Assembly: GCA_034399495.1 (NCBI GenBank)
Contig: DASCSU010000001.1
Span: forward strand, 1-39,137
Length of the DNA: 39,137 nucleotides
Direction of reading: 5' to 3'
Source: Candidatus Thalassarchaeaceae archaeon
Lineage (GTDB): Archaea > Thermoplasmatota > Poseidoniia > Poseidoniales > Thalassarchaeaceae
Positions 173 to 26,200 of this stretch are shown here, piece after piece (the first letter of the stretch is position 1; every line of letters starts with the position of its first letter). The translations under genes were made by a program, and so were the position numbers. The notes below the pieces were generated by a model. It ran no database searches. It was not told the DNA's origin and saw only the letters and a program-made list of their open reading frames with translations.

Positions 173-1492
173 TCATTCGATTCTTGAAAGGAAGTTTGGA
201 TCGGATACAGCAAAACAGTTGGGATGCGTGAGTGTAGCACCTACTTTGCTTGCAAGACAAGCCGCAGTCATCCATAGCCGATGGTCAGCATGTGTTTCCA
301 CTATGCCTTCAGGGCTTGTCGGAGTTTGACTCCCTTCCACCGAAATGCCATCATCATTAGCCACTGCTTTGATACCAAAATTAGCTAGCAATTCAACAGT
401 TTTCTCAATCCTGTTTGACTCCTTATGACGGGCATGAGCTGCTCCCGTAATTGTCCCACCACCACCTAAAGCAAGAATTGCAGATAGTGGTGGCAACAAA
501 TCGTTTGCATCTCTCAAATCAATTTCCATAGGGCCCTCTTGTGATTCTAGAGATTCTAGAATCTCTGAACCAAGTGAATCTTCTTTGGATGGGGGATTAT
601 CGATGTTGATCTGTACCCCATGTACTGCGCCATAGAGAATTGCAAAAGATTCCAAACTACGATCAGAAGGAATCTCAACAATATCTGGGCATTCGACATC
701 CCACGGTTTCATGATAATGTGTGGGCGCCAGTCTATCTCGTTCTCAGAGCCGGTCTTTCTAGCAAGTTCAAACGAAAGTTTAGCATGTCTGCGAGATACT
801 CCTTCACCTGCTAGATTCACCCTTATTGGACCTTCAAGTGCTGGCATAGATAGAAGAAGTGCTGAGAGTGGCTGGCTTGAGCGATTCACATCTATGGTCA
901 CTTCACCCGGCTTCAATGGCCCATGGACAAGGTAGGGTAGTGACTCCAAACCAGTCCCGTGACTAACTTTTGCACCTAGATATTCGAGTATACGAAGCAA
1001 AGTTTCAGAATGTCGTTTCCTCAATGTTCTGTCCCCATCTAGCATTACAGGGCAGTCTAGACGAGCAGCAGCGATTGTAAGGAGCCGCAATGCTGTACCA
1101 GAATTACCACAGTGGAGTATAGAAATCGGACGTTTAAATCCTTCAGAACCAACGCCCAAAACAGTCCACCCATCTTCACTCATGTCAATCTCTACGTTGA
1201 GTTGACGAAGGCAGCGCGCCATGGAAATAACATCTTCACCTGGGCTTCCTGAGAAATTTAGAGTAACGGTTTTGTCCCCTTGTGCTGCTAGTAGGAGCCA
1301 GCGAATCATATGGCTTTTTGATGGGGCTAGACTCCACTCCTGAGGGGTAGTAACTGGGTTAGGGGAAATGGTCAGAGACCCACCTTTACCCTTGTCACCC
1401 TGCTTAGAGTGCCAAGGCTTCCAATTCTCTAGATTCGACATGCTCCCCAAATACGCCTGTGGGTATTTAGCATTCAAGCCCTTTGGGGCCAT
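173..1492 (-). CDS. aroA: 3-phosphoshikimate 1-carboxyvinyltransferase (EPSP synthase)
   Basis: 439-aa ORF. Carries the EPSP-synthase signature 'LHCGNSGTALRLL' and the C-terminal 'DHRLWMTAACLA' (DHR-x-AM-type motif). Length is typical for the family. Confidence 0.9.
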   Translation of the reverse strand: MAPKGLNAKYPQAYLGSMSNLENWKPWHSKQGDKGKGGSLTISPNPVTTPQEWSLAPSKSHMIRWLLLAAQGDKTVTLNFSGSPGEDVISMARCLRQLNVEIDMSEDGWTVLGVGSEGFKRPISILHCGNSGTALRLLTIAAARLDCPVMLDGDRTLRKRHSETLLRILEYLGAKVSHGTGLESLPYLVHGPLKPGEVTIDVNRSSQPLSALLLSMPALEGPIRVNLAGEGVSRRHAKLSFELARKTGSENEIDWRPHIIMKPWDVECPDIVEIPSDRSLESFAILYGAVHGVQINIDNPPSKEDSLGSEILESLESQEGPMEIDLRDANDLLPPLSAILALGGGGTITGAAHARHKESNRIEKTVELLANFGIKAVANDDGISVEGSQTPTSPEGIVETHADHRLWMTAACLASKVGATLTHPNCFAVSDPNFLSRIE

Positions 1493-2004
1493 TAATTAGA
1501 GGCAGGGAGTGTTACGGCGAAGATTTCACCACTACTTCTTCCACCTGCGCCCTCGTAAATCATCCTAAAAGTCCAGTCTCCAGAATCGCTACCAACTGCC
1601 GCCGCATCGATTACAAAGTAATCTCCAGTATTGACAGTGAAGCCTGCATCTCGATCTTGGAATGACACGTTCTGTCCTGACACGCCATATACTTCAGAAT
1701 CAGAGGTAAAACCAGAGATTGTGTCTGTATTTACACCATCGGGTGGAATCAGTTGGAATTTGCATTTGAAAGTCTCAACTTGGGCATTCATCTCACTGAT
1801 GGTCACAACCTGATAGCCATTGTCAAGAATTCGTACACTGGCCTTAGCAATTGGGACACCCTTGTTTGGAGCTTGCACACCTGAAGCCATCATCATGTAA
1901 ACTGCTCCAGTTAACAATACGGTGATTGCAAGCAGAAGGATGGTTGCGATAACAGGTGAAACCGCCTCAGTAGTGGCAGTTCTATCCCTCTTGCAGCCGT
2001 CCAT
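1492..2004 (-). CDS. Archaeal type IV pilin-like protein (class III signal peptide)
   Basis: 170-aa ORF. A charged leader is followed by 'EAVSPVIATILLLAITVLLTGAVYMMM', the canonical archaeal pilin N-terminal (Pilin_N/DUF1628-type) hydrophobic helix. The rest is predicted beta-rich. Its stop overlaps the aroA start by 1 nt. Confidence 0.75.
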   Translation of the reverse strand: MDGCKRDRTATTEAVSPVIATILLLAITVLLTGAVYMMMASGVQAPNKGVPIAKASVRILDNGYQVVTISEMNAQVETFKCKFQLIPPDGVNTDTISGFTSDSEVYGVSGQNVSFQDRDAGFTVNTGDYFVIDAAAVGSDSGDWTFRMIYEGAGGRSSGEIFAVTLPASN

Positions 2005-2013
2005 ATTGTTCCC

Positions 2014-2817
2014 TCAAGCGACCCTGTCCACAGTCTCTGGAGTAATTCCTTCCTCATCAGTCACACGGTAGGTGTAAACTCGGAGATTTTCTGGCGCATT
2101 TCTAAATTTGCGAACTACCATTCGAGTCTCGAAGGTGTTAGCAATCATCTTGACTTCAAAATCAAACACGATATCACTAATCAGTGCCAATTCTCTTTGA
2201 ACATTGTCTGGAACTGAACCACTAGATGTTGATAATAGAAGTAAGCCACGATTTAGTTGAGTATGAGCTTGCATAACCCTAAGCATCGAAATTACTCGGT
2301 GTGATTCATTTCTTTGGAAGAAGAAATCGAGGTTATCTACAGCACAACGGAAGAATGGCCCTAGTGAAGTAACCTGACTTGCTAGGGAAATTAGGTAGTC
2401 GGTGTTATCCTCCTCAACGAATCTAGTTTGAGCGAGTCTCTGAATATCTTGCATTGAAAATCCTTCAAGGCGAAAGCGACTAGCTTCCAAGTCCTTCTCA
2501 AGTACTTTCTCGTTATATTCCTCGCCAATAGTCCTCACTTTCAAGTCGAGTGGCCATCCGAAGCGTCGGAAAACTTGTAGGATTTCATTTTGACTTTCAG
2601 CTGTTGAAACTAAAATTGTATTTTCAGGATCTTCTGCCACAGAGGTAAATTGCTTCATGAACAAATCCATTCCACCACCTGGCTCTCCAATACAAAGGAT
2701 GGTGAAGCCGCGAGGAATACCGCCTTTCATCATCTTGTCAAATTTTGGCGAACCAATACTTCCTCTGCCTCCAAAGAATTCCTCATCATCTTGGTCAAAT
2801 ACAACTTTTCTTGCCAT
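2014..2817 (-). CDS. KaiC/RecA-superfamily ATPase-like protein with inactivated Walker A
   Basis: 267 aa. 'GGIPRGFTILCIGEPGGGMDLFMKQF' aligns by eye with 'GGIPYGATVLVGGTCGSGKTTLTMEF' of the paralog at 3409-4170. The P-loop Lys-Thr is replaced by Met-Asp. Confidence 0.7.
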   Translation of the reverse strand: MARKVVFDQDDEEFFGGRGSIGSPKFDKMMKGGIPRGFTILCIGEPGGGMDLFMKQFTSVAEDPENTILVSTAESQNEILQVFRRFGWPLDLKVRTIGEEYNEKVLEKDLEASRFRLEGFSMQDIQRLAQTRFVEEDNTDYLISLASQVTSLGPFFRCAVDNLDFFFQRNESHRVISMLRVMQAHTQLNRGLLLLSTSSGSVPDNVQRELALISDIVFDFEVKMIANTFETRMVVRKFRNAPENLRVYTYRVTDEEGITPETVDRVA

Positions 2818-2827
2818 ATTTTACACC

Positions 2828-3412
2828 TCAGGAAATTACCACTTGACCACGGTCTACTAAGTCTGTACAATATAGGTCTAGATTTGCTAGAACGCTAGGA
2901 GGGGTTTGGTCAGGCACAGTTACTACACCACTCAAAATATCTCGGGCACGGAATGTGTTGATGAATGTGTGAAGATATTCTGCTAGCATTCTTTCTTCAT
3001 TGTAAATTGCCAATGCATTTACCGAATCTAGAATCACAAAGTTTTGCTCAGTAGGCATCTGTCTAAGGTGGTATAGAGTTCTCAGTAGAATACTTTCAAG
3101 CATAATTGGGCTGTCAATATACGAGATGTTAGTATACGGGTTTTCAGTGCCTCCAAGAAGAGCTGATGAGACACAGTCAACAAATTGGATACTATCTGTA
3201 GGGACTCCAATTTCATCAAATGTTGCAATCAATTCCGGTGCAGGTCTGCTAGCAGAGATGTAGACTCCACCCATCTGAAATTCGTTGATGAGCGGCTCAA
3301 CTAAAGAAGCGGTCACTAGGAACGAGTTGCTTGAGCCACAACGAACTTGCATGGAAGAATTGAGAGTAATCTCAGTAAGTTGCTCAGCAATTCTCTGGTC
3401 TAATTCAATCAA
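2828..3412 (-). CDS. Short KaiC/RecA-like domain protein without a recognisable P-loop
   Basis: 194-aa ORF with a TTG start that overlaps the upstream stop (TTGA). It resembles a RecA/KaiC core ('GGVYISASRPAPELI', 'FVILDSVNAL' Walker-B-like strand) but has no GxxxxGK[ST]. The family call is tentative and the start is uncertain. Confidence 0.5.
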   Translation of the reverse strand: MIELDQRIAEQLTEITLNSSMQVRCGSSNSFLVTASLVEPLINEFQMGGVYISASRPAPELIATFDEIGVPTDSIQFVDCVSSALLGGTENPYTNISYIDSPIMLESILLRTLYHLRQMPTEQNFVILDSVNALAIYNEERMLAEYLHTFINTFRARDILSGVVTVPDQTPPSVLANLDLYCTDLVDRGQVVIS

Positions 3413-4170
3413 TCTGAATCAACTCCCCACTTCAACATCGGTGTCATCATCACACCCAATGGTGTCAATTCAATTGCATATTTTGCTCTTGAATGGTCTG
3501 TACCACGCATCTTCACAACCTGTAGGAATCTGAGAAGGTGACCCATTCTGTCGATATCCCCCATGACCATGATGCCGTCAAGAATAGCTTCCTCTACACC
3601 GAAAGATGACCAGTGAGCTTTGGCACCAGCAGAAGTAATTTCAGCAACAAGGAATGAGGTACATCCCTGCGTAGCCAAGGTTTTACCCAGTGTAAAAAGG
3701 AAGTCACGAATCAGTTGGTCGTTTGGAATTTTGTAACAGAGAGTAGTTACCGAATCAATCACTAGTCTAGTGACACCAATTGTGTTTACAATATCTGTAA
3801 TCGCCTTCACCAGCGAATTGATGTCATCACGATCAAAGGTTGCTTTAGTTAGGCCTAGCCAAGAGTAAACGACATCCATATCAAAGACATTGATTAGGCC
3901 CTTGTCGACCATATCCATATCGAAAAAGGTGTATTGTCGGATGTTTTCAAGTAGTTTCACTGAGGGTTCAGTTGCTGCAAAGTAGGCACATGCCTCGCCC
4001 ATTTGCGCCCCATGAACAAGGAACTCCATGGTCAAGGTAGTCTTACCTGAACCACAAGTACCGCCCACTAGGACAGTTGCGCCATATGGGATTCCACCTC
4101 GGGTGATTTCGTCCAATCCGTGTATACCTGTGATACAACGGTCACGAGTGTACTGTGGGGTCCCGAGCAT
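3409..4170 (-). CDS. KaiC/RadA-like single-domain ATPase (ArlH/FlaH-like)
   Basis: 253 aa. Has 'GIHGLDEITRGGIPYGATVLVGGTCGSGKTTL' (intact Walker A) and 'RLVIDSVTTL' (Walker B-like), the typical KaiC-family single-domain architecture. Confidence 0.85.
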   Translation of the reverse strand: MLGTPQYTRDRCITGIHGLDEITRGGIPYGATVLVGGTCGSGKTTLTMEFLVHGAQMGEACAYFAATEPSVKLLENIRQYTFFDMDMVDKGLINVFDMDVVYSWLGLTKATFDRDDINSLVKAITDIVNTIGVTRLVIDSVTTLCYKIPNDQLIRDFLFTLGKTLATQGCTSFLVAEITSAGAKAHWSSFGVEEAILDGIMVMGDIDRMGHLLRFLQVVKMRGTDHSRAKYAIELTPLGVMMTPMLKWGVDSD

Positions 4171-4222
4171 GCTAACGAATACCCAACGGCCGACCTCCGC
4201 TAATAACTCGTTGCTATGGGGA

Positions 4223-4238
4223 CACGCCTTTAGGCGTG
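4223..4238. repeat. Inverted repeat CACGCC-TTTA-GGCGTG (6-bp stem, 4-nt loop) between the LTD-pilin gene and the first KaiC-like gene
   Basis: Read directly from the sequence. It lies in the 123-nt gap inside an otherwise tightly packed minus-strand gene string. Function unknown (operator, processing site or weak terminator). Confidence 0.5.
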
Positions 4239-4293
4239 AAATAATGGCTAAGATAACTATGGCGTTTTTATCAAAATTCGCAGTATGGTAATA

Positions 4294-5364
4294 TCAGATT
4301 GAACCAGGTGTTCCGCCATTGCTTCGAGCCCAATTAGATGAGTTTGAAGCAGGACCGCCATTCCATTGAAGAGAGATGTCGCTTTCAATCTCCCAGCCAT
4401 CATCCCATGAAACATCCATGGTGCTGTATGTCTGTGCTGTTCCAGGGTATGTCCAAGTGAGGCTCAATGTATCAGAGTACATGTTTAGTCCATCTACTGC
4501 ACCACGTCCCAAAATACTAGATTGCCCTAAATCTAGAACAGTCTCTGCACCTTGATTTTCTTGCAGGTTTGGTTTACCCGAGCATAGGATGATACTTCCT
4601 CCAGCTAGTGCTCCATCTCCAATGAGTGTGTGTAGCCCTCCACCAGAAGAGCGCCCTAACCCCCAACCAGTCAGATTTGCCGCAAAACCATCCTTGTTTT
4701 CTAACTCAACCCATTCAGGAAACCCTGTATCTGGTTCAGCCATGAATTCAGTAATGACTAGATTTGCAGGAGTGCGACCAGCATCGTGTACCTCAAAGAT
4801 GATCTCCACAGTCTCATCATTAAGCACCATCATTCGATGGGCTACGGCTCCGTTTGCGGCAGCATTACGACTAGCACCATCTTGGAATAGTAGGACATCA
4901 ATTCTAGATGAATTAAGGCTCTCAATAATGCGAATTGTGAGGTTGATGCTGCTCCATTCTGGTAACCCCAATCCTCGAATGAAGTGATCTTGGGTGACAT
5001 TTGAAATCGCATTCAAGCGGGCTTCATCAAGGCGTCCAAAGTCACCAGCAATACCTGGATGAACTGACCCTTCAAGCAATTTTGTCGCATTGTAATGGTG
5101 CCAGTCAGCAGTCCCATTGGCAATGTCTCTGTCACCCCACTCGTCTATTGGCACATACCAGCCCGAGTCACCAGTCAATCTTTGCAAACCTTGTAGTGCA
5201 TAATCATCCAATTGATCTGATTTGGGGTGATTGGAACCAAGTTGTAATCCTGCAAGCGAAAAGAAGGCAGTCAAGACGATGAGAAAAAGGACGAAAGCGG
5301 TCAGAAATTCAATGACTGCAGTGAGTGCGTCCTCAGAGTTTGCCAAACGTTTGACTCTCTTCAT
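4294..5364 (-). CDS. Pilin-like (class III/TadE-like N-terminus) protein with C-terminal lamin-tail domain
   Basis: 356 aa. The N-terminus 'SEDALTAVIEFLTAFVLFLIVLTAFF' resembles the TadE/archaeal pseudopilin helix. The C-terminal part 'LVITEFMAEPDTGFPEWVELENKDGFAANLTGWGL...' matches the lamin-tail-domain consensus (InE...eWvEL.N....vdLsGw.L). Confidence 0.7.
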   Translation of the reverse strand: MKRVKRLANSEDALTAVIEFLTAFVLFLIVLTAFFSLAGLQLGSNHPKSDQLDDYALQGLQRLTGDSGWYVPIDEWGDRDIANGTADWHHYNATKLLEGSVHPGIAGDFGRLDEARLNAISNVTQDHFIRGLGLPEWSSINLTIRIIESLNSSRIDVLLFQDGASRNAAANGAVAHRMMVLNDETVEIIFEVHDAGRTPANLVITEFMAEPDTGFPEWVELENKDGFAANLTGWGLGRSSGGGLHTLIGDGALAGGSIILCSGKPNLQENQGAETVLDLGQSSILGRGAVDGLNMYSDTLSLTWTYPGTAQTYSTMDVSWDDGWEIESDISLQWNGGPASNSSNWARSNGGTPGSI

Positions 5365-5414
5365 CTACTTCACCCACACTATGCGACCCTTTTGTACACC
5401 ATCAATTCTATGTT

Positions 5415-6416
5415 TCACGGCAGCCCTACCAAATTGAGCAATAGTAACACGGGGTCACCAAACAAAAGCATTGGAAGAATCCCTACCATTAGGAATGCCA
5501 TGAATGGATATTTTTCAGTAGTCCAAGCCTTTTCAGCTCCAAGTTCTGCTAACTCATCTAGCACCTCATCCAATGCTGTTTCACTACGGCTTCCACGGCG
5601 TGGTCGCATCTTAGTGACGATTTTCTTTTCACCATCGTGACCTTCCATTACTTCATCCAACAGCCAGACATGGCGACCAGAAATTGTGGAGAGTGGAAGT
5701 CGGCGCGCGTGCCAAGCCATTCGCCATTCACCAGCATCACCACTGATGGCATTTTGAATAAACACATAGAATGGCAGAATTAGGAATGTCAGTGCCCCCC
5801 AGATTAGGAGTGAAAGTGCTGGTGGCATTAGAGCAGCATCTGCTGGTGGAAGGGTCCCCCAACCGGGCAAACAGAGAGCAACGAACATCATTGCCTTAGC
5901 GTCTGCTCCACCGTGTAACATTCGTAGTTGGTAGCACATTTCGAAAAAGAGTAATACAAGGCCTATCATAATCATTTGACCCCAAAGGTATGCTGCTTCA
6001 ATCTCAGCGGTGCTAGAGCAATAATTACAACCAACAAGCGAGCCAAAACCAATACCGTCCATTAGGGGTGTAAAGTGGAGCATTACTCCGCCAACAAGTC
6101 CGACAAAGGATACTAGGTACCAGATACTTACAATCAGGTCTTCGGGAGAACCATTTCGTGCATCCTCTAAGGTAGGCCGGCCAATTACAGCAGTTGATGC
6201 ATAAGCAACCATTGCTGAGGCAGTAAGCCAGATGGTCCAATCTGCTTCTAAAACCCACAATTCAAGACATAGGACGAAGAGTGCAGGCTTTGCCCAAGAG
6301 ACCCACCAATCATTAGGAACGCGTCGAATTTTGAGATCCAGATAGGTCGCTCCTGCTATGCAGAGAACTAGAGTTGTAACGCGCGCATACGTGAGTATCT
6401 CAGGGGTCGTGACCAT
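5415..6416 (-). CDS. A24-family prepilin/preflagellin peptidase (PibD/FlaK-like)
   Basis: 333-aa polytopic membrane ORF. Both catalytic Asp motifs are present: 'YLDLKIRRVPND' and 'HGGADAKAMMFVAL' (GxGD/ADxK type). A soluble insert sits before the last TM helices, as in FlaK. Confidence 0.85.
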   Translation of the reverse strand: MVTTPEILTYARVTTLVLCIAGATYLDLKIRRVPNDWWVSWAKPALFVLCLELWVLEADWTIWLTASAMVAYASTAVIGRPTLEDARNGSPEDLIVSIWYLVSFVGLVGGVMLHFTPLMDGIGFGSLVGCNYCSSTAEIEAAYLWGQMIMIGLVLLFFEMCYQLRMLHGGADAKAMMFVALCLPGWGTLPPADAALMPPALSLLIWGALTFLILPFYVFIQNAISGDAGEWRMAWHARRLPLSTISGRHVWLLDEVMEGHDGEKKIVTKMRPRRGSRSETALDEVLDELAELGAEKAWTTEKYPFMAFLMVGILPMLLFGDPVLLLLNLVGLP

Positions 6417-6501: not shown

Positions 6502-6765
6502 TTGACCATAGAGACCAAACTAGAGCAGATATCCTCAGTAATTCTTCAATTAGATGACTCCAAGGTTCCTAGGAACATTCGTGCTGGAGCTAAAGAATCA
6601 GTTGAGATGTGGTTACTCAACAAATCCAAAGACATGGATGTAAGAATTGCAATGGCTCAAAACAAATTGGAAGAATTGTCTGAAGACCCAAACATCCCAA
6701 TGGAATACGGAGTACTTATTCTCCAAGTTTTGACTGCACTTGAGCAACTTCTTGGCGAAGTGTAA
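6502..6765 (+). CDS. UPF0147 family protein (archaeal)
   Basis: 87 aa. 'LDDSKVPRNIRAGAKESVE...DVRIAMAQNKLEELSEDPNIPMEYGVLILQVLTALEQL' matches the conserved UPF0147 pattern (VPRNIR...DPN.P). Uses a TTG start. Confidence 0.8.
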   Translation: MTIETKLEQISSVILQLDDSKVPRNIRAGAKESVEMWLLNKSKDMDVRIAMAQNKLEELSEDPNIPMEYGVLILQVLTALEQLLGEV

Positions 6766-6767
6766 TT

Positions 6768-7139
6768 CTATGCTGCTGATTGATCATCAGCATCTTCCAA
6801 GAGAACAAATTTGTATTCTCCTGTTGAACTATCATAATCTATGATAGAGAATAGAACCTTCATCTGTCTCTCTTCAAATGGGTCATGGAACCATGGTTGT
6901 CCACCACGAAAAATGGTTAGGATCTTCTTGTAGGTATCCATATTCATATTTCCACTAATTGTATAGACTGCGCTTTCTGCGCCTTCATCAAACAAATCAT
7001 CACCCTCTCCGCCACGAATAACGGTACGTTGTACTCTTCTAGAAACGGTCATATGGACATTGCAACCATCAATTTTCACCCATTCTTCAGATTCTTGTCT
7101 AATGTAACATTCATTTACTTGCATTTTTCCTCTGCTCAT
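6768..7139 (-). CDS. Hypothetical protein
   Basis: 123-aa ORF that fills the gap between neighbours. I recognise no family. Acidic C-terminus. Confidence 0.45.
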   Translation of the reverse strand: MSRGKMQVNECYIRQESEEWVKIDGCNVHMTVSRRVQRTVIRGGEGDDLFDEGAESAVYTISGNMNMDTYKKILTIFRGGQPWFHDPFEERQMKVLFSIIDYDSSTGEYKFVLLEDADDQSAA

Positions 7140-11991: not shown

Positions 11992-12819
11992 TCACTCTTC
12001 TTCGGCAATATCATCAATATCAGAATCTGTTTTTTGTTCTTCTTTTTCTTCATTTTCAGTGCCAAGTGCACTTTCTTTGCCACCTAACAAAAGAACACCA
12101 ACTAAGAACAGAGCAATCACTCCCGAACCCGCTGCAACCCAAAGTAACCATCCGCGAGGTGGTTCATCTTCATTTTCGGCATCCAGCTCTTGTTCATCTT
12201 CATCAATTCCGTACTCGTAACCACCTATGGGGGGTGAATCACCATCACTTGGATGCTCATCAGGCTGGACAATGATGGTGCCATTGTTAACTACCCCATT
12301 GGATAAAATGTCCTGATAATTGTAGGTCCCTGGCCCCCAAGTTCCATTGAATGGAATTTCATATGTCACTCTGCAATCTGGATCGGTTTGATTCCCGAAT
12401 TCATCTTTTTCACATTCATAAGATAGGTTGCCTGAATCCCAATCTAGAGTTCCATTGTAGAGTCCATCTCCGTCTTCATCGTAGACAATTCGATGGGTAA
12501 TATTCTCTGTGGAATCTACATTGTACCACCAAACTGAATCGTTGAAAACGAGTTGTGGTGTGTTAGGAGTTAGTTGGTTAGCCTTGGCTAGTATTGTGAA
12601 GGTTCCAGCATCATGGGCAACTGCTGAAGCAGGAAGAAACGCTGTGAAAGCAAGGAGTATTGCGGCAAACCACGCGACCACACCGACTTTCGCCACGAAT
12701 TGTTTGGCGTTGCCCACCCATAAATAAAAGGTGACAGCACAGGTCGAGCGTTCTATGGATAACAAGGTGGTTGCAGCCGCCGCTTTATTGGACAAGAAGG
12801 TGGTTGCTGCAGCAGCCAT
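11992..12819 (-). CDS. Exported, C-terminally membrane-anchored acidic protein, possibly cupredoxin-like with degenerate copper ligands
   Basis: Has a signal-like segment 'VVAWFAAILLAFTAFLPASAVA' and a C-terminal TM 'WLLWVAAGSGVIALFLVGVLLL' with an acidic tail. 'QLVFNDSVWWYNVDSTENITHRIV' and 'GTYNYQDILSNGVVNNGTIIV' resemble cupredoxin strands, but the Cys/His/Met ligand positions are not conserved. The true start is probably the GTG near 12717, and the ORF-track N-terminus is likely an artefact. Confidence 0.55.
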   Translation of the reverse strand: MAAAATTFLSNKAAAATTLLSIERSTCAVTFYLWVGNAKQFVAKVGVVAWFAAILLAFTAFLPASAVAHDAGTFTILAKANQLTPNTPQLVFNDSVWWYNVDSTENITHRIVYDEDGDGLYNGTLDWDSGNLSYECEKDEFGNQTDPDCRVTYEIPFNGTWGPGTYNYQDILSNGVVNNGTIIVQPDEHPSDGDSPPIGGYEYGIDEDEQELDAENEDEPPRGWLLWVAAGSGVIALFLVGVLLLGGKESALGTENEEKEEQKTDSDIDDIAEEE

Positions 12820-14542
12820 CCTAGCCTTGGGGATATTTTCTGCAAGTCTCTATGCTCTGACAACTTCTCTAATTGACAACAACGGGGGTGAAGATGCATG
12901 GGTGATGATAGACCCTCTAATCCAAGATGAGGAACATGATCATCGCAATTCAACTCAGCATGATTTCGGCACTCCGAACATCGATTTTGTAAATTATAAT
13001 CCATTAACAATGCCTGGTAATGCAGAGGTCCAGGTGGCAGATTCACCTGATGGTCATACGTATGCATATCAAGCAGGTTGGAAAGAAATGCACATCACAG
13101 ATGTTACTGACCCCTACAATACTTCAGTTGCGGGTGTTTACAATGACCCGTACACTCAGGTATTAGATGTCAAGTACCTTGAATACAATGGGCGAGAGTA
13201 TGTCATTCTTCAGAACCAATTGGTTGACCCGGGAAACTCTGACCCCAATGTCGGAGAGTGGGAAGATCCTGCTCAGGTGAGTGTTACTTTAGTTGATGTA
13301 ACTAACAAGGCAGACCCTGAATACATTGATTCTTGGTATGATGTTGACCATCCTTCTGGGCCGCACAATCTCTACACACACATGATTGATGGAGAATGGT
13401 ACATCTTTGTAGCCAATCCCGACTACGATCAATGTGATGTAGGAACCGGTGATGCTTGCGGAGGCGTAACCATTGCTCACCTCAATTTCGCCGCCTATGG
13501 TGACTTACCGCGCATTGTCAAGGTGGGCGAAGCAGAAGTCAGTTGGGAGACTACTAACGGTGGTTGGATTTACATTCATGACATGACTGTTCAAACTTGG
13601 CCAGGAGAAGATACAAACGACCCAAGGTTTGGTCATACCTACGTTTATGGAGCATATTGGGAAGCGGGTTTGAGAATTTTTGATGTTACTGACGTACCTC
13701 ATCCACAGCATAATCTCGCTGAATATCTCTGGCATGGTTCTCTATGCCGCGCTTCGGGGGGCAGTCAAGCAGGATGTCTATGGCGAGCACCTGAAGTTGG
13801 ACTTTGGATGAATTTCTCTGATTTGAATGATGATGGAGAACCAGATGCAGGGTGGTCAAGCAATGAAAATGGTGGCAGAGCTTCTTACATTCACTATGCT
13901 GAACCATTTGACAAAATGGTTGATGCAAGCCACCTTGGCTATCCTTCAGGAAAGATGCATCTCACATTCCTTGCTACTGAAGTTCTTGAGACTACGGTTG
14001 GAGTTGGTTTGGGCTATCTCATAGATACAACACCTTACGAGATGATTAATGGGAAATTAACTTTCAAACCGAAGGTGATTCATGACTGGGAAATTCCCTT
14101 TGCAGAGGAGCATTTCATCCCAGGTGGGGAAGAATGGTTGCTATTCAGCCCACACAACGCGGATTTAGAAATATTTCAGACCGGGATTCAAGGAAAGCCT
14201 GACACTAGTCTTGGAGGTGCTTGGGACGGTAGAATATACCTATCTCATTATCACAGCGGCGTTTGGGTAATTGATGTAGAGACGCTGATGCAGGCGGGAT
14301 TGGCAGATCACAACAAGACAGATGTTTACTTCGATTCAACGGTAGCATACTATCTACCGCATGGGGCAGATGGAACTCCTCTAGAATCACAGTATTACGA
14401 CTTCGGTTGGGTGCCATTCCTATGGGCCGCTGAATATCATAAGGGCTACATTTACACCTCTTGCATAACTTCTGGCCTCTACATTATGCAGTTAGATATT
14501 GACAAACCATACGAAGGACAAATTAGTACTCAAAATACTTGA
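12731..14542 (+). CDS. LVIVD-repeat beta-propeller protein, N-terminal signal anchor
   Basis: 603 aa. Contains repeated LVIVD-type motifs ('MHITDVTDPYN', 'AGLRIFDVTDVPHP', 'SGVWVIDVETL', 'SGLYIMQLD') and the N-terminal TM 'VVAAAAILALGIFSASLYAL'. ATG 12755 is a likely alternative start. Confidence 0.7.
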   Translation: MTAQVERSMDNKVVAAAALLDKKVVAAAAILALGIFSASLYALTTSLIDNNGGEDAWVMIDPLIQDEEHDHRNSTQHDFGTPNIDFVNYNPLTMPGNAEVQVADSPDGHTYAYQAGWKEMHITDVTDPYNTSVAGVYNDPYTQVLDVKYLEYNGREYVILQNQLVDPGNSDPNVGEWEDPAQVSVTLVDVTNKADPEYIDSWYDVDHPSGPHNLYTHMIDGEWYIFVANPDYDQCDVGTGDACGGVTIAHLNFAAYGDLPRIVKVGEAEVSWETTNGGWIYIHDMTVQTWPGEDTNDPRFGHTYVYGAYWEAGLRIFDVTDVPHPQHNLAEYLWHGSLCRASGGSQAGCLWRAPEVGLWMNFSDLNDDGEPDAGWSSNENGGRASYIHYAEPFDKMVDASHLGYPSGKMHLTFLATEVLETTVGVGLGYLIDTTPYEMINGKLTFKPKVIHDWEIPFAEEHFIPGGEEWLLFSPHNADLEIFQTGIQGKPDTSLGGAWDGRIYLSHYHSGVWVIDVETLMQAGLADHNKTDVYFDSTVAYYLPHGADGTPLESQYYDFGWVPFLWAAEYHKGYIYTSCITSGLYIMQLDIDKPYEGQISTQNT

Positions 14543-14643: not shown

Positions 14644-16641
14644 TTGATGCGGAGAATGATGTTTGATGATGAATCTGCAGCCACTCAAGAGCAGATGATT
14701 GTTTACGCTCTTGTTGGCTTAGTTTCATTGAGCCTTCTTTCATCTGCTGCTTGGTTTGCTTTTAGCTTTGGAAATGATGATACATCTGAAGATCCGATGG
14801 AAAATTGGGTTGATCCGGTTACAGAAATTGAGGATGATAATCACAGTCATACTGACTTAATGGCACACAGATTGAAGACTGACAATATGCAACTGATTGA
14901 TTATCATAATCTCAATTGTGACGGTAATGAAAAGCCTCCAACTGAATTAGACAATATTGCTGGACGTCCTTGTTTTCCCGAATATAAGAACACAGGGCCA
15001 ACACCAGGTGATAATTCAGAAATTGCCATTCAAGGAAATTTCTTGGATGATTGTGTAATCTATGGTGATGGCACTGGTGGATGTTATGCTTATGTTTCAT
15101 CATACAATCAGTTTGAGATTCTTGATATCTCAAGACCCAACAACATCACATTATTGTCGACTTACTACGCTGAAGTAGCCCGAATAATTGACATCAAGGT
15201 GACACCAGACAATAACTGGGTACTAATCAATCACGAATTGACCAATAGTGAATTAGATCCTATTCCAAATGACGATGATGCTAACAGTGGTACTAATCGA
15301 CTAGACGTTGTCTATGTGGGAAATAAATTGGAGCCTGTAAAAGTTGCAGAATGGAATAATCCTCCCGCAGGATTCCATAACCAAGATGTCCATGTATACT
15401 GTGATTGGGAGCCTGCAAACCCTATGTGGTCAGATGAGGAGTGTCATCTCTTCTTGTTCGGTGCTGACCCTTATCCCGAAATGATGGAAGGTAGTTCAGG
15501 GACTTACTACAAAGGGACTCAAATTTTCTATGTACCACTTGGCTTAGAGTCGTGGCTTCCAACTCAGAGTGATGAGCAGCAAAATCAAAGTCGTGAGATT
15601 GTTAGATGGGGTGGCTATTCTCCAGAAATTGATACCACCTGTGGTGGAGCAATTTTCAATCACGACAATGTATACGCAGTACATCCAATTACTGGCCAAA
15701 AACTTCTCTATATTTCTTATTGGGGAGCTGGCTTGAGAATCGTTGATGTCACTAATCCACCTGATGTCCCTGATCCAGAAGGTGTATCATGGCCACAGAA
15801 CAATGAGGTTGGCCGCTGGCTAGGTTGTCCAACAGCCGATGACGGCTGGTATGGTCCTGATGGTGGCGGCCACGCCGACATGTCGGCAGAAGAGTGGCTT
15901 GATGCCAATCAAGGAAATGACAACATTCACTACGCTGTGCCATACGACCACCTCATTTGCAATGGAATAAGCGAATATGTCCCAGAGGCAACTTGGCCAG
16001 CATCTTGTGGTACTGGGCCAGATGATGAAACACATGGTGTCAATTGGAGACATTATACTCTTATCGCACCCGAATATGGTTCTAACTCTAATCATACTGG
16101 ATATGTATGGACAATTGATACAACAGACCCGGCCAAACCTTTCCTTGTAAGTAAGTGGAAATTACCCGGTGAAGGAACTTTAGCAAATGGCTCAAAACAT
16201 CCACAGCACTACATACCTGGGGGGTATATCTTCAGCCCACATAATGGTGATACGGGGCTAAATGGTATGGTTTACTGGGCACATTATCATGCTGGAACTT
16301 GGGTTACTGACCATGGTCATATCTGGGAAGATCTTGTTTGGGAAGATGGAGTACCTGCTCCAGAATTTGGATTCAAGGCTATCAAGGAGTTAGCAGAGAC
16401 TCGCACAATGGGGTATTACATTCCCGCGGGTCCAACTTGGATTGATGATCCTACAAACACGCTTGAGTATGACATGGCAGATTGTTGGGCATCCTGTGTG
16501 ATTCCATTTGATTGGGGCCTACAATATGACCCTCGAGGATACATATTAATTTCTGAGATGGTTAGTGGAATCTATGTTGTGCAAATGGAATCTGATAAAG
16601 ATGCAAGATATCCATACCCCCCGCTTTATCCCTCTGAGTGA
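14644..16641 (+). CDS. LVIVD-repeat beta-propeller protein, paralog of 12731-14542
   Basis: 665 aa. Has the N-terminal TM 'IVYALVGLVSLSLLSSAAWFAF' and LVIVD-type motifs ('FEILDISRPNN', 'AGLRIVDVTNPPDVPDP', 'SGIYVVQME'). It shares a 'FSPHN...H(Y)H(S/A)G(V/T)WV' block with the upstream paralog. Confidence 0.7.
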   Translation: MMRRMMFDDESAATQEQMIVYALVGLVSLSLLSSAAWFAFSFGNDDTSEDPMENWVDPVTEIEDDNHSHTDLMAHRLKTDNMQLIDYHNLNCDGNEKPPTELDNIAGRPCFPEYKNTGPTPGDNSEIAIQGNFLDDCVIYGDGTGGCYAYVSSYNQFEILDISRPNNITLLSTYYAEVARIIDIKVTPDNNWVLINHELTNSELDPIPNDDDANSGTNRLDVVYVGNKLEPVKVAEWNNPPAGFHNQDVHVYCDWEPANPMWSDEECHLFLFGADPYPEMMEGSSGTYYKGTQIFYVPLGLESWLPTQSDEQQNQSREIVRWGGYSPEIDTTCGGAIFNHDNVYAVHPITGQKLLYISYWGAGLRIVDVTNPPDVPDPEGVSWPQNNEVGRWLGCPTADDGWYGPDGGGHADMSAEEWLDANQGNDNIHYAVPYDHLICNGISEYVPEATWPASCGTGPDDETHGVNWRHYTLIAPEYGSNSNHTGYVWTIDTTDPAKPFLVSKWKLPGEGTLANGSKHPQHYIPGGYIFSPHNGDTGLNGMVYWAHYHAGTWVTDHGHIWEDLVWEDGVPAPEFGFKAIKELAETRTMGYYIPAGPTWIDDPTNTLEYDMADCWASCVIPFDWGLQYDPRGYILISEMVSGIYVVQMESDKDARYPYPPLYPSE

Positions 16642-23240: not shown

Positions 23241-26200
23241 ATGAAGAGGTGCGCAACGGTCCTGATACTTCTCATGCTAATGTCATCTTTAGCCGCTTTC
23301 ACTACAATCCCTTACCAAGGGGAAGGGCCTTTGGAGGGCGGCATTACAATGGATTCAGCATCATTAAATTCTCCAGAAATAGTTACTATCTCAAATTATC
23401 CTACATCTATTTCTAATTCCTTCAAATTAGATATTCCAGAAGATGAGGCGATACGAAATATTAGCCTTGAATTAGCTCCTTCTGTGGTTTCTCGCAGCGA
23501 CGGTCATTCATTCACTCAATCTAGTGATTTCAATCAAACAGGGGCAACTTCCCAAGGAATTGACTACAATACTTCAGGATTGCAGGTATCTGCGATTGAT
23601 GAGTACTGGTCCTTTGAAGGTACAAACGCACTACCTTCGGGATGGTCCTCAAGCAATACTAACTATGGTCTAATCAATACAATGACTTGCGGTACCAATG
23701 GTTCTAGCAGTCGTTCCTTGACACTCCGCCATGGGACTGTTTCCGTTACCTCAAACACCATTGATCTTTCTTCGCTAACACAAGGAATAATGTCCCTATG
23801 GATGACTGAGGGGCGTTCAGGATGTGGTGAAGATCCTGATTCAAGTGAGCACCTCTATGTGGAATACAAGCGTTCAACAGGAAGTTGGGGTCAAATTACC
23901 TATTACAATGCAGGGCTAGGATACCCAGGATACACTAATGTGAATTCCCAATTCAATCTCCCAAATGATGCCTTTCATTCAAACTTCCAGTTTAGATTCC
24001 GTCTGCCATTCGGTTCAGGTACCTGTTGCGATTGGTGGTTCGTTGACGATGTTAGGCTAACAAAACCAGGAGGCCAAGGGAATTGGACATCACCTGCCTT
24101 TGGACCTAGCGCTTCTAATCCCACTTACCGCTCACTTCCAGGTCCATATGGGATTATGAGTATCGATTCTGATACCTCATCAAATGCCATCACATGGTCC
24201 GTTATCGATGCTTCAAACGGTACTACTCTTGATGGATATGACCAACGTTCAGGCACTTGGGCAGATTTGGGTGGAATTGATTGGGTAAAACACCCAGCAA
24301 TTCGTTTGAAAGTGGGCCTGTCGGCACAAGGTACGGGTTCTGTATCCAAGATTAATGGCATTCATATTCAAGGTAAATATGTTAATTCCTTTGATGTAAA
24401 TCCAACAGATTGGAGTCTTTCTTCTTGTAGTTGGGATGGAGATAGCATCACAGGATCAGGATATGCCTACTCTCCGACTTTAAATTCGCGCCGGCCAATT
24501 AGTAAGGTTACAGCAGCGATTACATTCACGGGTGGCGGCTATTTGGAAGCCACGACAGATGGCTCGGCATGGTTTGCATTGAGTAACAATGGCCCTACCA
24601 ATTTGGATGATTGGACCACTCAAATTCAATTCCGATGGAATGGGCAGAGTTCAAGTTTCGATTTGCAGAAGTTTGATGTCGAACTTCATGGAGCAGGCTT
24701 ACCCTCTTCTCCAGCCATAGATTTGTTGAGCAGTAGCCGGAATGAATGGGGCATTGTAAACCAATCAATAGGTACTTGGGGTTGGCAGGATGTTCTTGAA
24801 AATGGCAATCGTTCGATTGATTTGAATTTCCAAAACCAAGAGACAGTTCCTCTTTGGATTCCAAAAGATTCAGATGGTCACTTCCTGTTTGAAGTAAGCC
24901 CTGAATTAACTAATGGAGTATCAAACTTGGATATTGAACTGTTGATAGATGGAAACACGATTTCATCATGGAATTATGGCACAGGTTTTGATTCTCAAAC
25001 TTTCCAGGTAGAAGCAAATGAGCGTTCAAATTTTGTAGCAAATGTGGTTTCAGCACAGACAGTATGGGGCAATTTCGATGTTGAATATATTCGCGCTGAA
25101 CTAGTTCTCGACGCGTCTGGTGGTAGTGCCCGCCTAGGAGGAATTGCCATTCCGCACTATCCAACTACATCTGTTCATTTTGAGCCGGAATCTGATTTCG
25201 TTTTGAATCTAAACAATATTGTCAGCAGTATGACGGCAACTAATGGCTTGGTGACAGTCCCTATTGCCATGGGTTGGGATTTTCCTGCTGCGATGTCAGT
25301 TACTCTAACTGAGTTGAATACAGGCTTAGCAACCCAAATTGAATTAGAATCTGCATCCAATCTTTCCAGTACTTTATCTCCATCATGGCAATGGTTTGAA
25401 TTAGGCCATAATCTATCTGTTGAAGAGGGTGAATTGGCAGCACTTCGCTACGATCTTGTTGGTGACAATAATGCGGTGACTTACACCGTTTGGCTTGGAG
25501 CCTCCCCCTTACCTCCAGACTTGCTTGAAGGCGATACAAATGCCATCATCATCCCAGAGAATTTCACTACTGGTGCATATACTACTGAACCGGGAGCTAG
25601 TGGGCCTGGGATATGTTGTGAATTACATCCCAATTTCAAATTCTCATTGAACTCTTCTTGGGAGGACGAGGAGTTACTGTCATTCACGCTGCGTGGTGTG
25701 ATGAAAGATGGGCTAATCTCATTACCATGGGTTCACTTGTTTGGGCCGGGTCCATCTCAAGGTGTAGAGAATGATTTGTTGATTTCTGAATGGCGCGTAT
25801 TCAATGACCGCTCACTTGTGATTCCACCCAGTACATCATATCTGAAATCTGATTCTAATATTTCAGTAGAAGTTGATCTCCAGTTTGAGGGGTTAGAGTC
25901 TATGTTTGGGCCACGTAGTAACGATGTCGAAGTCAGATTACTGGAGAATGGAGTGGTCAATATGCAGACTACCCAGTTGAATCAGGGTAGAGCCATATTC
26001 AACACTCGCACGCCTATTGCAACAGGAATAGTAGATTATTCAATAGAACTTTCATTGCTCAGTGGCGGGAGCGATGTGACTTCCATTAGCTTAAATCGTT
26101 CATTTGAAATCGATTCTGTTTCTCCTCAGGTTATCAATCAGAGTGTTGCTTCTCACGACCACCTTGAACCATCACTTGCACAAACCCTCACCTTTGAGAT

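Follow-up and report, generated by a model that had tools for sequence, protein, structure and literature searches.

The contig DASCSU010000001.1 of a Candidatus Thalassarchaeaceae archaeon (marine group IIb [MGIIb]), from which a stretch of 39,137 nucleotides was analyzed (here, the window), carries on its minus strand six closely spaced genes, encoding a prepilin peptidase of family A24, a surface protein with an Ig-like lamin-tail domain (LTD), three KaiC-like proteins (K1, K2, and K3), and a type IV pilin precursor (Table 1). The first-pass annotation had described these six co-directional open reading frames (ORFs) as a single operon, and all of them were found again with the same coordinates. 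The comparison with related loci nonetheless leads to a different delimitation: the core of the locus is an ancient Thermoplasmatota module, composed of an active K1, one or two dead KaiC-fold paralogs, and a type IV pilin, and not a six-gene pilus operon. To this core, the order Poseidoniales (marine group II [MGII]) has apparently added the LTD protein and, in most species, a divergently transcribed type I membrane surface protein of about 1,000 amino acids (aa).

Table 1. Coordinates and predicted nature of the features discussed in the window
Feature	Position	Strand	Description
A24 peptidase	5415-6416	-	333 aa; divergent FlaK-type (A24B)
LTD protein	4294-5364	-	356 aa; N-terminally anchored surface protein; candidate modular pilin-like protein
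GC-rich hairpin CACGCC-TAAA-GGCGTG	4223-4238	-	LTD-K1 spacer; T-rich stretch before hairpin
Promoter-like (B recognition element/TATA-like) element CAACGAGTTATTAG	4200-4213	-	About 30 nt upstream of K1 start codon
K1	3409-4170	-	Single-domain KaiC-like ATPase; Walker A and Walker B intact
K2	2828-3412	-	KaiC-fold pseudo-ATPase without P-loop; DUF7504/DUF7090-like
K3	2014-2817	-	KaiC-like paralog with degenerate Walker A; pseudo-ATPase
Pilin	1492-2004	-	Type IV pilin precursor with class III signal peptide; orthologous to the K1-K2-linked pilin of Thermoplasmatota
aroA	173-1492		Overlaps pilin stop codon by 1 nt

The KaiC-like trio and the surrounding genes

The three KaiC-like proteins are all of the single-domain type (194 to 267 aa) and show no predicted membrane segment. 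K1 matches the Pfam KaiC model (PF06745) with 169.6 bits (cutoff, 26.6 bits) and features a Walker A motif, G-T-C-G-S-G-K-T (residue 37), and a Walker B motif, L-V-I-D-S, both of which are kept in every ortholog (Walker A also in those of the Methanomassiliicoccales type). K3 is also recognized by Pfam (KaiC, 62.9 bits; DUF7125, 38.5 bits) and is related to K1 in the hhalign comparison (96% probability; E = 2.3e-9), with a degenerate Walker A motif, G-E-P-G-G-G-M-D, devoid of the Lys-Thr pair. The match of K2 to the Pfam KaiC model lies below the same cutoff (E = 0.017; 14.9 bits), and hhalign with shallow alignments gave no significant match between K2 and K1, so that its KaiC fold was accepted on the basis of structure prediction and Foldseek. 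In particular, the AlphaFold2 model of K2 (pLDDT, 66; pTM, 0.70) matched PH0284, KaiC, PH0186, and FlaH with query-normalized TM-scores of 0.53 to 0.66 (best E = 3e-6), reaching 0.66 for the top PH0284 and KaiC chains and 0.57 for FlaH. Furthermore, relatives of K2 match Pfam KaiC, DUF7504, and DUF7090, and two of them (P0381 and P0386) pass the KaiC cutoff with 33.5 and 30.3 bits. No Walker A motif or P-loop was found in any of the K2 and K3 orthologs examined, and K1 is the sole predicted active ATPase of the trio.

An arrangement of this kind has counterparts in the Elp4/5/6 ring, the Rad51-paralog complexes, and the CI and CII domains of KaiC, which are RecA-fold hetero-oligomers of active and degenerate paralogs. 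The analogy is one of architecture only, and the present module has no connection with genes for tRNA modification or recombination; faint matches to the Elongator Iki1/Elp5 Pfam family were obtained for K2 and for its relative P0373 (E = 0.068 and 0.0075, respectively). An assignment to a defense system was examined and discarded, since PADLOC returned only a P-loop-local match of K1 to mad8 (E = 8e-4; 17 bits).

Of the two genes proposed to encode pilin-like substrates, the one downstream of K3 encodes a protein recognized by both the Pfam Pilin_N model (34.9 bits; cutoff, 25.2) and TIGR02537 (31.1 bits; cutoff, 20), with the N terminus TTEA/VSPVIATILLLAITV. The LTD protein matches the Pfam LTD model marginally yet consistently (34.4 bits against a cutoff of 34.3; 23.6 to 32.7 bits for the orthologs) and has a single transmembrane helix, at the N terminus (residues 13 to 31). 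Its N-terminal sequence, NSEDA/LTAVIEFLTAFVLFLIVL, is prepilin-like, and the corresponding motif, [DE]x[AG]-[LV]TAV[IV]EFLxAFxLFL, is conserved order-wide, in all MGII orthologs. In shape, this N terminus resembles a class III or TadE-type prepilin; however, no pilin Pfam model matched it even at E ≤ 1, and it can therefore be called pilin-like only at the level of the motif. The single-sequence AlphaFold2 model (pLDDT, 38) was confident only for the N-terminal helix (residues 11 to 44). With its prepilin-like helix and its grafted Ig-like module, the LTD protein is reminiscent of modular pilins, such as PilB of Streptococcus sanguinis, and of the sugar-binding proteins of the Sulfolobus bindosome, which are non-filament class III substrates. 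Different from the setting of the LTD protein, the known modular pilins and the bindosome still need a pair of the PilB/PilC type.

We accepted the product of the peptidase gene as a divergent FlaK-type A24 peptidase, an assignment that derives mainly from its relatives. Alone, the window protein has a sole Pfam match, to Arc_PepC_II (PF06847; 30.3 bits; cutoff, 29.9), with no match to PF01478 at E ≤ 0.1 and none to any PDB sequence. Nevertheless, the profile of the 20-member family matches FlaK (3S0X; E = 3.3e-5), and 7 of the 20 relatives match Peptidase_A24 (PF01478). Two putative catalytic aspartates, D27 (LDLKIRRVPN in the window; LDxKxRRVPN in the family) and D172 (HGGADAK, a second motif of the GxGD type), are invariant in the 20 members, and the protein is polytopic, with four to six hydrophobic segments. 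For the individual genes, therefore, the identities proposed in the first-pass annotation were largely confirmed: an A24 peptidase, a Pilin_N-type protein, and three KaiC/RecA-like proteins (K1 and K3 by Pfam matches above the cutoff, K2 by its model and its relatives), while for the LTD-bearing pilin-like protein the domain and the prepilin-like motif hold and the relationship to a pilin model does not.

As regards gene packing, the start of K2 overlaps the K1 stop codon by 4 nt in the window, and across loci the median gaps are -10 nt for K1/K2 and -4 nt for K3/pilin, i.e., overlapping coding regions that suggest co-translation. The aroA gene lies against the pilin gene with the same tight packing that is seen among the module genes, so that close abutment does not mark an operon boundary. 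Inside the six-gene set, the spacer that separates the LTD gene from K1 is the biggest (123 bp), and it contains the hairpin and the promoter-like motif of Table 1. The hairpin, a perfect 6-bp GC stem, was found in nine related LTD-K1 spacers with loops TAAA, TTAA, and TATA, and it could represent a terminator or a regulatory element. The CAACGAGTTATTAG element is kept in 11 spacers of the clade to which the window belongs, and Poseidoniaceae have a related element, ATCGTTCATTTAG, at the same position upstream of K1. The conservation of these elements suggests that K1-K2-K3, possibly together with the pilin gene, have a promoter of their own, and the hairpin and the promoter-like element are likely a terminator/promoter pair dividing the cluster into two transcription units.

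Conservation of gene order in Poseidoniales and beyond

In order to examine synteny, the species representatives of GTDB were scanned with a K2 profile, which gave 285 loci, and the best 80 of the 285 were analyzed with flanks of up to 10 kb on each side. The labels of the 285 loci were almost all Poseidoniales or generic archaeal; the one exception, a module-bearing MGII contig (L052; CAXRJJ010000005.1) in a metagenome-assembled genome (MAG) labeled Yoonia sp., is probably mis-binned. As far as the contigs extend, K1-K2-K3 keep one order and one orientation in all of the Poseidoniales species loci (80 of 80), and the trio is thus strictly syntenic. Different from the trio, the complete six-gene order, which had been interpreted as one operon, occurs identically in ten contigs from marine metagenomes, belonging to the same population, and, among the 80 species, only in one shallow clade of 9, and we discarded the hypothesis of a conserved six-gene operon.

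The prevailing arrangement in the 80 loci is that of a large membrane protein gene on the minus strand followed by the LTD gene, on the plus strand, and by K1, K2, and K3, and the more distant MGII contigs likewise show the divergent gene, then LTD, K1, K2, and K3. The large protein, which is the usual upstream neighbor of the LTD gene in Poseidoniales, has 940 to 1,100 aa and was detected in 59 ORFs among the 80 loci, as well as in other MGII loci [L011:4454-7486(-), L016:4365-7271(-), L018:4347-7271(-), and L019:14488-17808(+)]. Its layout comprises a signal peptide, a large ectodomain that weakly matches CARDB, a C-terminal transmembrane segment, and a basic cytoplasmic stretch, ending with the C-terminal motif D[DE]FxDFFx-COOH in about 50 of the 59 species; in one clade, an acidic variant (…DEDEDDY or close variants) is found instead. 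It is plausible that this acidic-aromatic tail serves as a docking site for a cytoplasmic complex. No homolog of the large protein was found in the window by tblastn.

Downstream of K3, the pilin and aroA genes are present in a Thalassarchaeaceae subset (22 loci). In six species, the K1-K2-K3 block is inverted between pilin/aroA and LTD/large protein, and the neighborhood of large protein, LTD, and K1-K2-K3 persists despite the inversion.

The peptidase is adjacent to and co-directional with the module in only 9 of the 80 species, whose K2 proteins all share 89% identity or more with that of the window; three further loci (L026, L037, and L038) are as close as these nine, but have the large protein upstream of the LTD gene. 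The conserved partner of the peptidase is, rather, a divergently transcribed UPF0147 gene [6502-6765(+) in the window], since this pair was observed in every locus examined (the window, L001 to L003, and L019 to L022). As these loci represent both MGII families, the pairing is a hint that the uncharacterized UPF0147 family is functionally linked. In Poseidoniaceae the peptidase lies far from the module, beside lactamase_B, TFB (TFIIB), and purA genes, and this context, with UPF0147, is regarded as ancestral; another lineage of Thalassarchaeaceae has it in convergent orientation to K3. It follows from its own UPF0147 context elsewhere that the peptidase is a housekeeping gene moved beside the module by rearrangement in the clade of the window: its adjacency is recent, local, incidental, and limited to this clade. 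Next to UPF0147, every close relative also has a conserved ORF of 118 to 123 aa without Pfam match [6768-7139(-) in the window]. One MGII-type peptidase, P0278, is labeled Planctomycetaceae bacterium and probably comes from a mis-binned contig.

A search of 1.8 billion representative proteins with the K2 profile returned 1,020 matches, and a metagenome scan with the stand-alone nonmarine forms of K2 gave 222 loci; genome and metagenome scans with P0373 gave no matches. The longer nonmarine loci contain K1 and K2, followed by at least one Pilin_N pilin (in one locus, L131, the order is K1-K2-K3-pilin). Nonmarine K1 proteins share 35 to 53% identity with that of the window and have an intact Walker A motif. 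The N termini of the nonmarine pilins are nearly invariant, MKKxWKxRKxxEA/VSPVIATILMVAITVVLAAVLYVMV, and match that of the window pilin; the same N terminus occurs beside K1-K2 in 33 of 47 nonmarine loci. The source names of the proteins include Methanomassiliicoccus sp., Methanomassiliicoccales archaeon, and Thermoplasmata archaeon, with soil Thermoplasmata among the carriers, and the flanks (Fae-Hps, PHP, AIR carboxylase, and AglB) are unrelated to those of MGII. Since K1-K2-pilin recurs with wholly different flanks, the deepest conserved link is that of an active KaiC-like ATPase, a dead paralog, and a pilin, and comparison of the loci indicates that this linkage is ancient in Thermoplasmatota.

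K2-like domains (DUF7504/DUF7090) occur in three forms, i.e., as stand-alone proteins of about 190 aa, at the C terminus of very large proteins, and in fusions with DUF835. In P0405, P0420, P0433, P0422, P0410, and P0408, a P-loop-less K2-like C-terminal domain is part of proteins of 780 to 1,780 aa or is fused to DUF835 or small membrane anchors; the large proteins have N-terminal TPR/SNAP repeats and CARDB or Ig-like domains, and one of them is from Candidatus Altiarchaeota. These fusions suggest that the K2-like domain is a widespread, presumably cytoplasmic, adaptor module of archaeal transmembrane proteins.

Search for a pilus motor and possible roles of the module

The first-pass annotation had called attention to the lack of PilB/ArlI and PilC/ArlJ, and in the window this observation was borne out, as no scanned ORF of the 39 kb matched T2SSE or T2SSF. 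The flanks of the 80 GTDB Poseidoniales species loci contained neither a T2SSE-type Walker A motif nor T2SSE/T2SSF Pfam matches, and T2SSE/T2SSF were likewise absent from the flanks of 22 other MGII loci, as were T2SSE-like ATPases and T2SSF from those of 80 nonmarine relatives; no polytopic platform protein (PilC/ArlJ/TadC) is conserved in or near the module. The Pfam families of the GTDB flank gene clusters are, instead, V-ATPase, CtaA/CtaB, GyrAB, MutSL, PurA, MoaA, and similar ones. Since no ArlI/ArlJ or PilB/PilC pair lies adjacent in any of these loci (about 180), the possibility that we are dealing with part of a standard type IV pilus (T4P) or archaellum locus can be ruled out for all the neighborhoods examined. 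A hidden ATPase/TadC pair was also considered for the 430-aa and 290-aa genes located upstream in nonmarine loci, which turned out to encode Fae-Hps (RraA plus OMPdecase) and a protein with a PHP domain, and the arCOG01314/MoxR-vWA "novel secretion system" (Makarova 2015) has unrelated components. Of the elements of a type IV filament system, a FlaK/PibD-type A24 peptidase and a pilin whose signal peptide is of class III are present, as in the archaellum and in the Aap, Ups, Epd, and PilA pili; different from all of these, neither the window nor any of the related loci examined contains the PilB/ArlI ATPase or the PilC/ArlJ/TadC platform.

At the genome level, the archaellum operon (FlaHIJ) occurs throughout MGIIa and in just a part of the MGIIb lineages (Rinke 2018; Tully 2019), most MGIIb subclades being devoid of FlaHIJ (Tully 2019), and therefore the module coexists with ArlI/J in many genomes. 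Moreover, three Methanomassiliicoccus-type genomes are among the few archaea listed without any T4P secretion ATPase (Makarova 2016).

On these grounds, we tentatively propose, at somewhat less than an even chance, that the module is a KaiC-type hetero-oligomeric switch functionally coupled to pilin-like or other class III signal peptide surface proteins, with K1 as the active subunit and K2 and K3 as scaffolds. K1, K2, and K3 would form a ring on the cytoplasmic side of the membrane, the state of which would be toggled by ATP binding, hydrolysis, or autophosphorylation in K1, and the ring could act as a switch over the production, membrane pool, or display of the surface proteins; where ArlI/ArlJ are encoded elsewhere in the genome, it may act jointly with them. 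The A24 peptidase would be the general prepilin peptidase of the cell and would probably process both pilin-like precursors. The proposal is supported by the invariance of K1-K2-K3 and by the far better conservation of K1 (76 to 80% identity across MGII families) than of the LTD protein (39 to 49%). It is also favored by the contrast between the intact K1 and the P-loop-less K2 and K3 in all orthologs, by the overlapping coding regions, by the recurrence of K1-K2-pilin outside Poseidoniales, by the adaptor-like fusions of K2-like domains, and by the plausible docking tail of the large protein. As for precedents, KaiC arCOGs located in or near T4P operons have been considered likely T4P regulators (Makarova, Koonin & Albers 2016); ArlH modulates ArlI, and in Haloferax volcanii archaellum genes, as well as motility linked to pilins, are under the control of CirA. 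The module resembles these T4P-regulating KaiC ATPases, CirA included, in the association of a KaiC-like ATPase with a pilin and in the proposed switch role; however, the cases of Makarova 2016 lie in or beside loci with a VirB11/FlaI ATPase and TadC, neither of which is found near the module in about 180 loci. A literature search gave no description of a fixed set in which an active KaiC paralog is combined with one or two dead ones and with a pilin.

Some observations weigh against this proposal. The contacts of K1, K2, and K3 with one another or with membrane proteins are ones that we infer, and both the tight linkage, possibly with translational coupling, between a set of ATPases and a structural pilin and the retention of the module in a lineage reported without T4P ATPases are unusual for a pure regulator, so that a direct mechanical or chaperone role fits equally. 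Co-transcription with the LTD gene is not required, as follows from the inversion in six species and from the promoter-like element of K1. Finally, the MGII loci revealed neither an output domain (e.g., DNA binding) nor KaiB as a partner and, as regards a KaiABC-like system, the annotated neighborhoods contain no KaiB or thioredoxin-like gene and the K proteins include no double-domain KaiC.

The direct role can be formulated as a ring of K1-K2-K3 acting on the N termini of the Pilin_N and LTD proteins as a motor or chaperone independent of PilB/PilC, whose product would be a minimal filament, a pseudopilus, or a surface array, with the A24 peptidase providing the maturation step. This corresponds to the strong reading of the first-pass annotation. 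We regard it as quite improbable, and we say the same of its narrower form, in which the KaiC-fold hetero-oligomer would be a dedicated cytoplasmic machine for pilin-like proteins in the organisms without PilB/ArlI and PilC/ArlJ (the Methanomassiliicoccus type and most MGIIb). It would account for the lack of T2SSE/T2SSF genes near the module, for the overlap of the K3 and pilin coding regions, and for the unusual conservation of the prepilin leader MKKxWKxRKxxEA among nonmarine pilins. K1-K2-pilin is moreover present in genomes of the type listed without T4P secretion ATPase (Makarova 2016), and module, pilin, and peptidase are retained in MGIIb subclades, most of which lack FlaHIJ (Tully 2019). 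The reported absence of T4P ATPases, though, rests on surveys of 2016 to 2019 with few genomes and incomplete MAGs, and ArlI/J are also kept by all MGIIa genomes. Furthermore, a motor of this kind would have to work with two of three subunits catalytically dead, without membrane segments in the K proteins, and without a conserved polytopic platform protein. KaiC-family proteins are, in addition, known as slow switch ATPases and not as translocation motors. If the motor hypothesis were true, a KaiC-fold machine would drive or gate the extraction, assembly, or display of pilins, and there would be a second, RecA/KaiC-based way to handle proteins bearing a class III signal peptide.

It is also possible to hypothesize that K1 to K3 are ArlH-like modulators acting in trans, which dock on ArlI/ArlJ encoded elsewhere, the adjacent pilins being ordinary substrates. 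ArlH (FlaH), a KaiC-like protein of a single domain and a binding partner of ArlI, resembles the K proteins in having one KaiC/RecA-fold domain of about 230 to 270 aa and in being encoded beside genes for class III signal peptide subunits; the K2 model superposes on Sulfolobus acidocaldarius FlaH (4YDS) with the TM-score given above, and the JGI automatic annotation names K2 "archaellum biogenesis ATPase FlaH." The arl operons of MGII, as well as the KaiC arCOGs in or near T4P operons (Makarova 2016), are in line with such a role. However, the trio consists of three paralogs, two of which are devoid of a P-loop, and K1 and K3 score only 33.2 and 35.1 bits against the ArlH equivalog NF052589 (cutoff, 215); the module never adjoins arlI/J in any locus examined, and it is kept order-wide, in subclades reported without FlaHIJ as well, and in Methanomassiliicoccales. 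Moreover, the arl operons of MGII already hold a FlaH of their own, as indicated by the legend of Fig. S18 of Rinke 2018 and by Tully 2019. We thus consider the role in trans unlikely, because of the failed ArlH membership, the separate FlaH of MGII, and the retention of the module without FlaHIJ or T4P ATPases.

The remaining explanation, to which we assign a low probability, denies any functional coupling and sees in K1 to K3 a general KaiC-like signaling set, or a RadB/Rad55-like DNA repair set, placed by chance beside surface protein genes. Besides the tight packing of aroA, it could invoke the occurrence of mutS, mutL, and gyrAB among the flanks in several lineages, the independent inversion of the K1-K2-K3 block, and the NCBI name of K3, "RAD55 family ATPase." Against DNA repair, K1 scores far better against KaiC models (125 to 170 bits) than against RadA, RadB, and RecA models (about 20 to 27 bits). 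As to chance, the neighborhood of large protein, LTD, and K1-K2-K3 survives the inversion, and the K1-K2-pilin adjacency is shared by Poseidoniales and Methanomassiliicoccales though all their other flanks differ; pure coincidence is hard to reconcile with such conservation between orders.

The switch proposal concerns organisms of some importance, as no other planktonic archaea reach the abundance of Poseidoniales in the surface ocean. The module is present in at least 285 MGII species, counted as K2-profile loci, and recurs in cultivable Methanomassiliicoccales. The role of many archaeal KaiC-like ATPases is a long-standing question, for which a module with fixed partners offers a testable handle. 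At the same time, it raises the question of the role of type IV pilins and of a prepilin peptidase in lineages reported without a pilus assembly ATPase, the answer to which bears on particle attachment and on the organization of the cell surface in uncultured archaea.

Other genes of the related loci and of the window

Some nonmarine loci contain further genes close to K1-K2-pilin. In five loci of the Methanomassiliicoccus type, a short ORF (about 80 aa) comes after the pilin gene [e.g., L103:11297-11542(+) and L109:11167-11409(+)]; its sequence (…LTTxELExxL…CPDDLARTLNxMRRxGLIxG…WVWW) looks like that of a small winged-helix protein, through which the module could exert a regulatory output. In another locus, an ORF placed about 2 kb downstream of K1-K2-pilin, L140:13107-19634(+), encodes a 2,175-aa AglB/STT3 oligosaccharyltransferase fused to CarboxypepD_reg repeats, and very large ORFs (1,000 to 1,965 aa) are placed in the same way in several other nonmarine loci. 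About 3 kb downstream of the K1-K2-K3-pilin set of L131, a 424-aa ORF [L131:14265-15539(+)] has a Cas12f1-like TNB domain, as found in transposon nucleases of the TnpB/IscB type.

The remainder of the window is mostly occupied by housekeeping genes (aroA, purA, TFB, PheRS, the SUF operon, FolD, and archaeosine TGT), together with several large secreted proteins. One of these, a 1,740-aa protein with a signal peptide and no significant Pfam match [23241-28463(+)], has a C terminus of low complexity that is extremely rich in Q, W, and Y (…QQQQQMTAEQYEQWQQWAAWQQAQQQQYAQQQQGW…). Two N-terminally anchored proteins of 603 and 665 aa, encoded in tandem at 12731-14542(+) and 14644-16641(+), have similar C termini, and the second contains LVIVD repeats; downstream of them are genes for SCO1/SenC and for an 807-aa YHYH/TSP3 protein, with which they may constitute a copper-related surface cluster.

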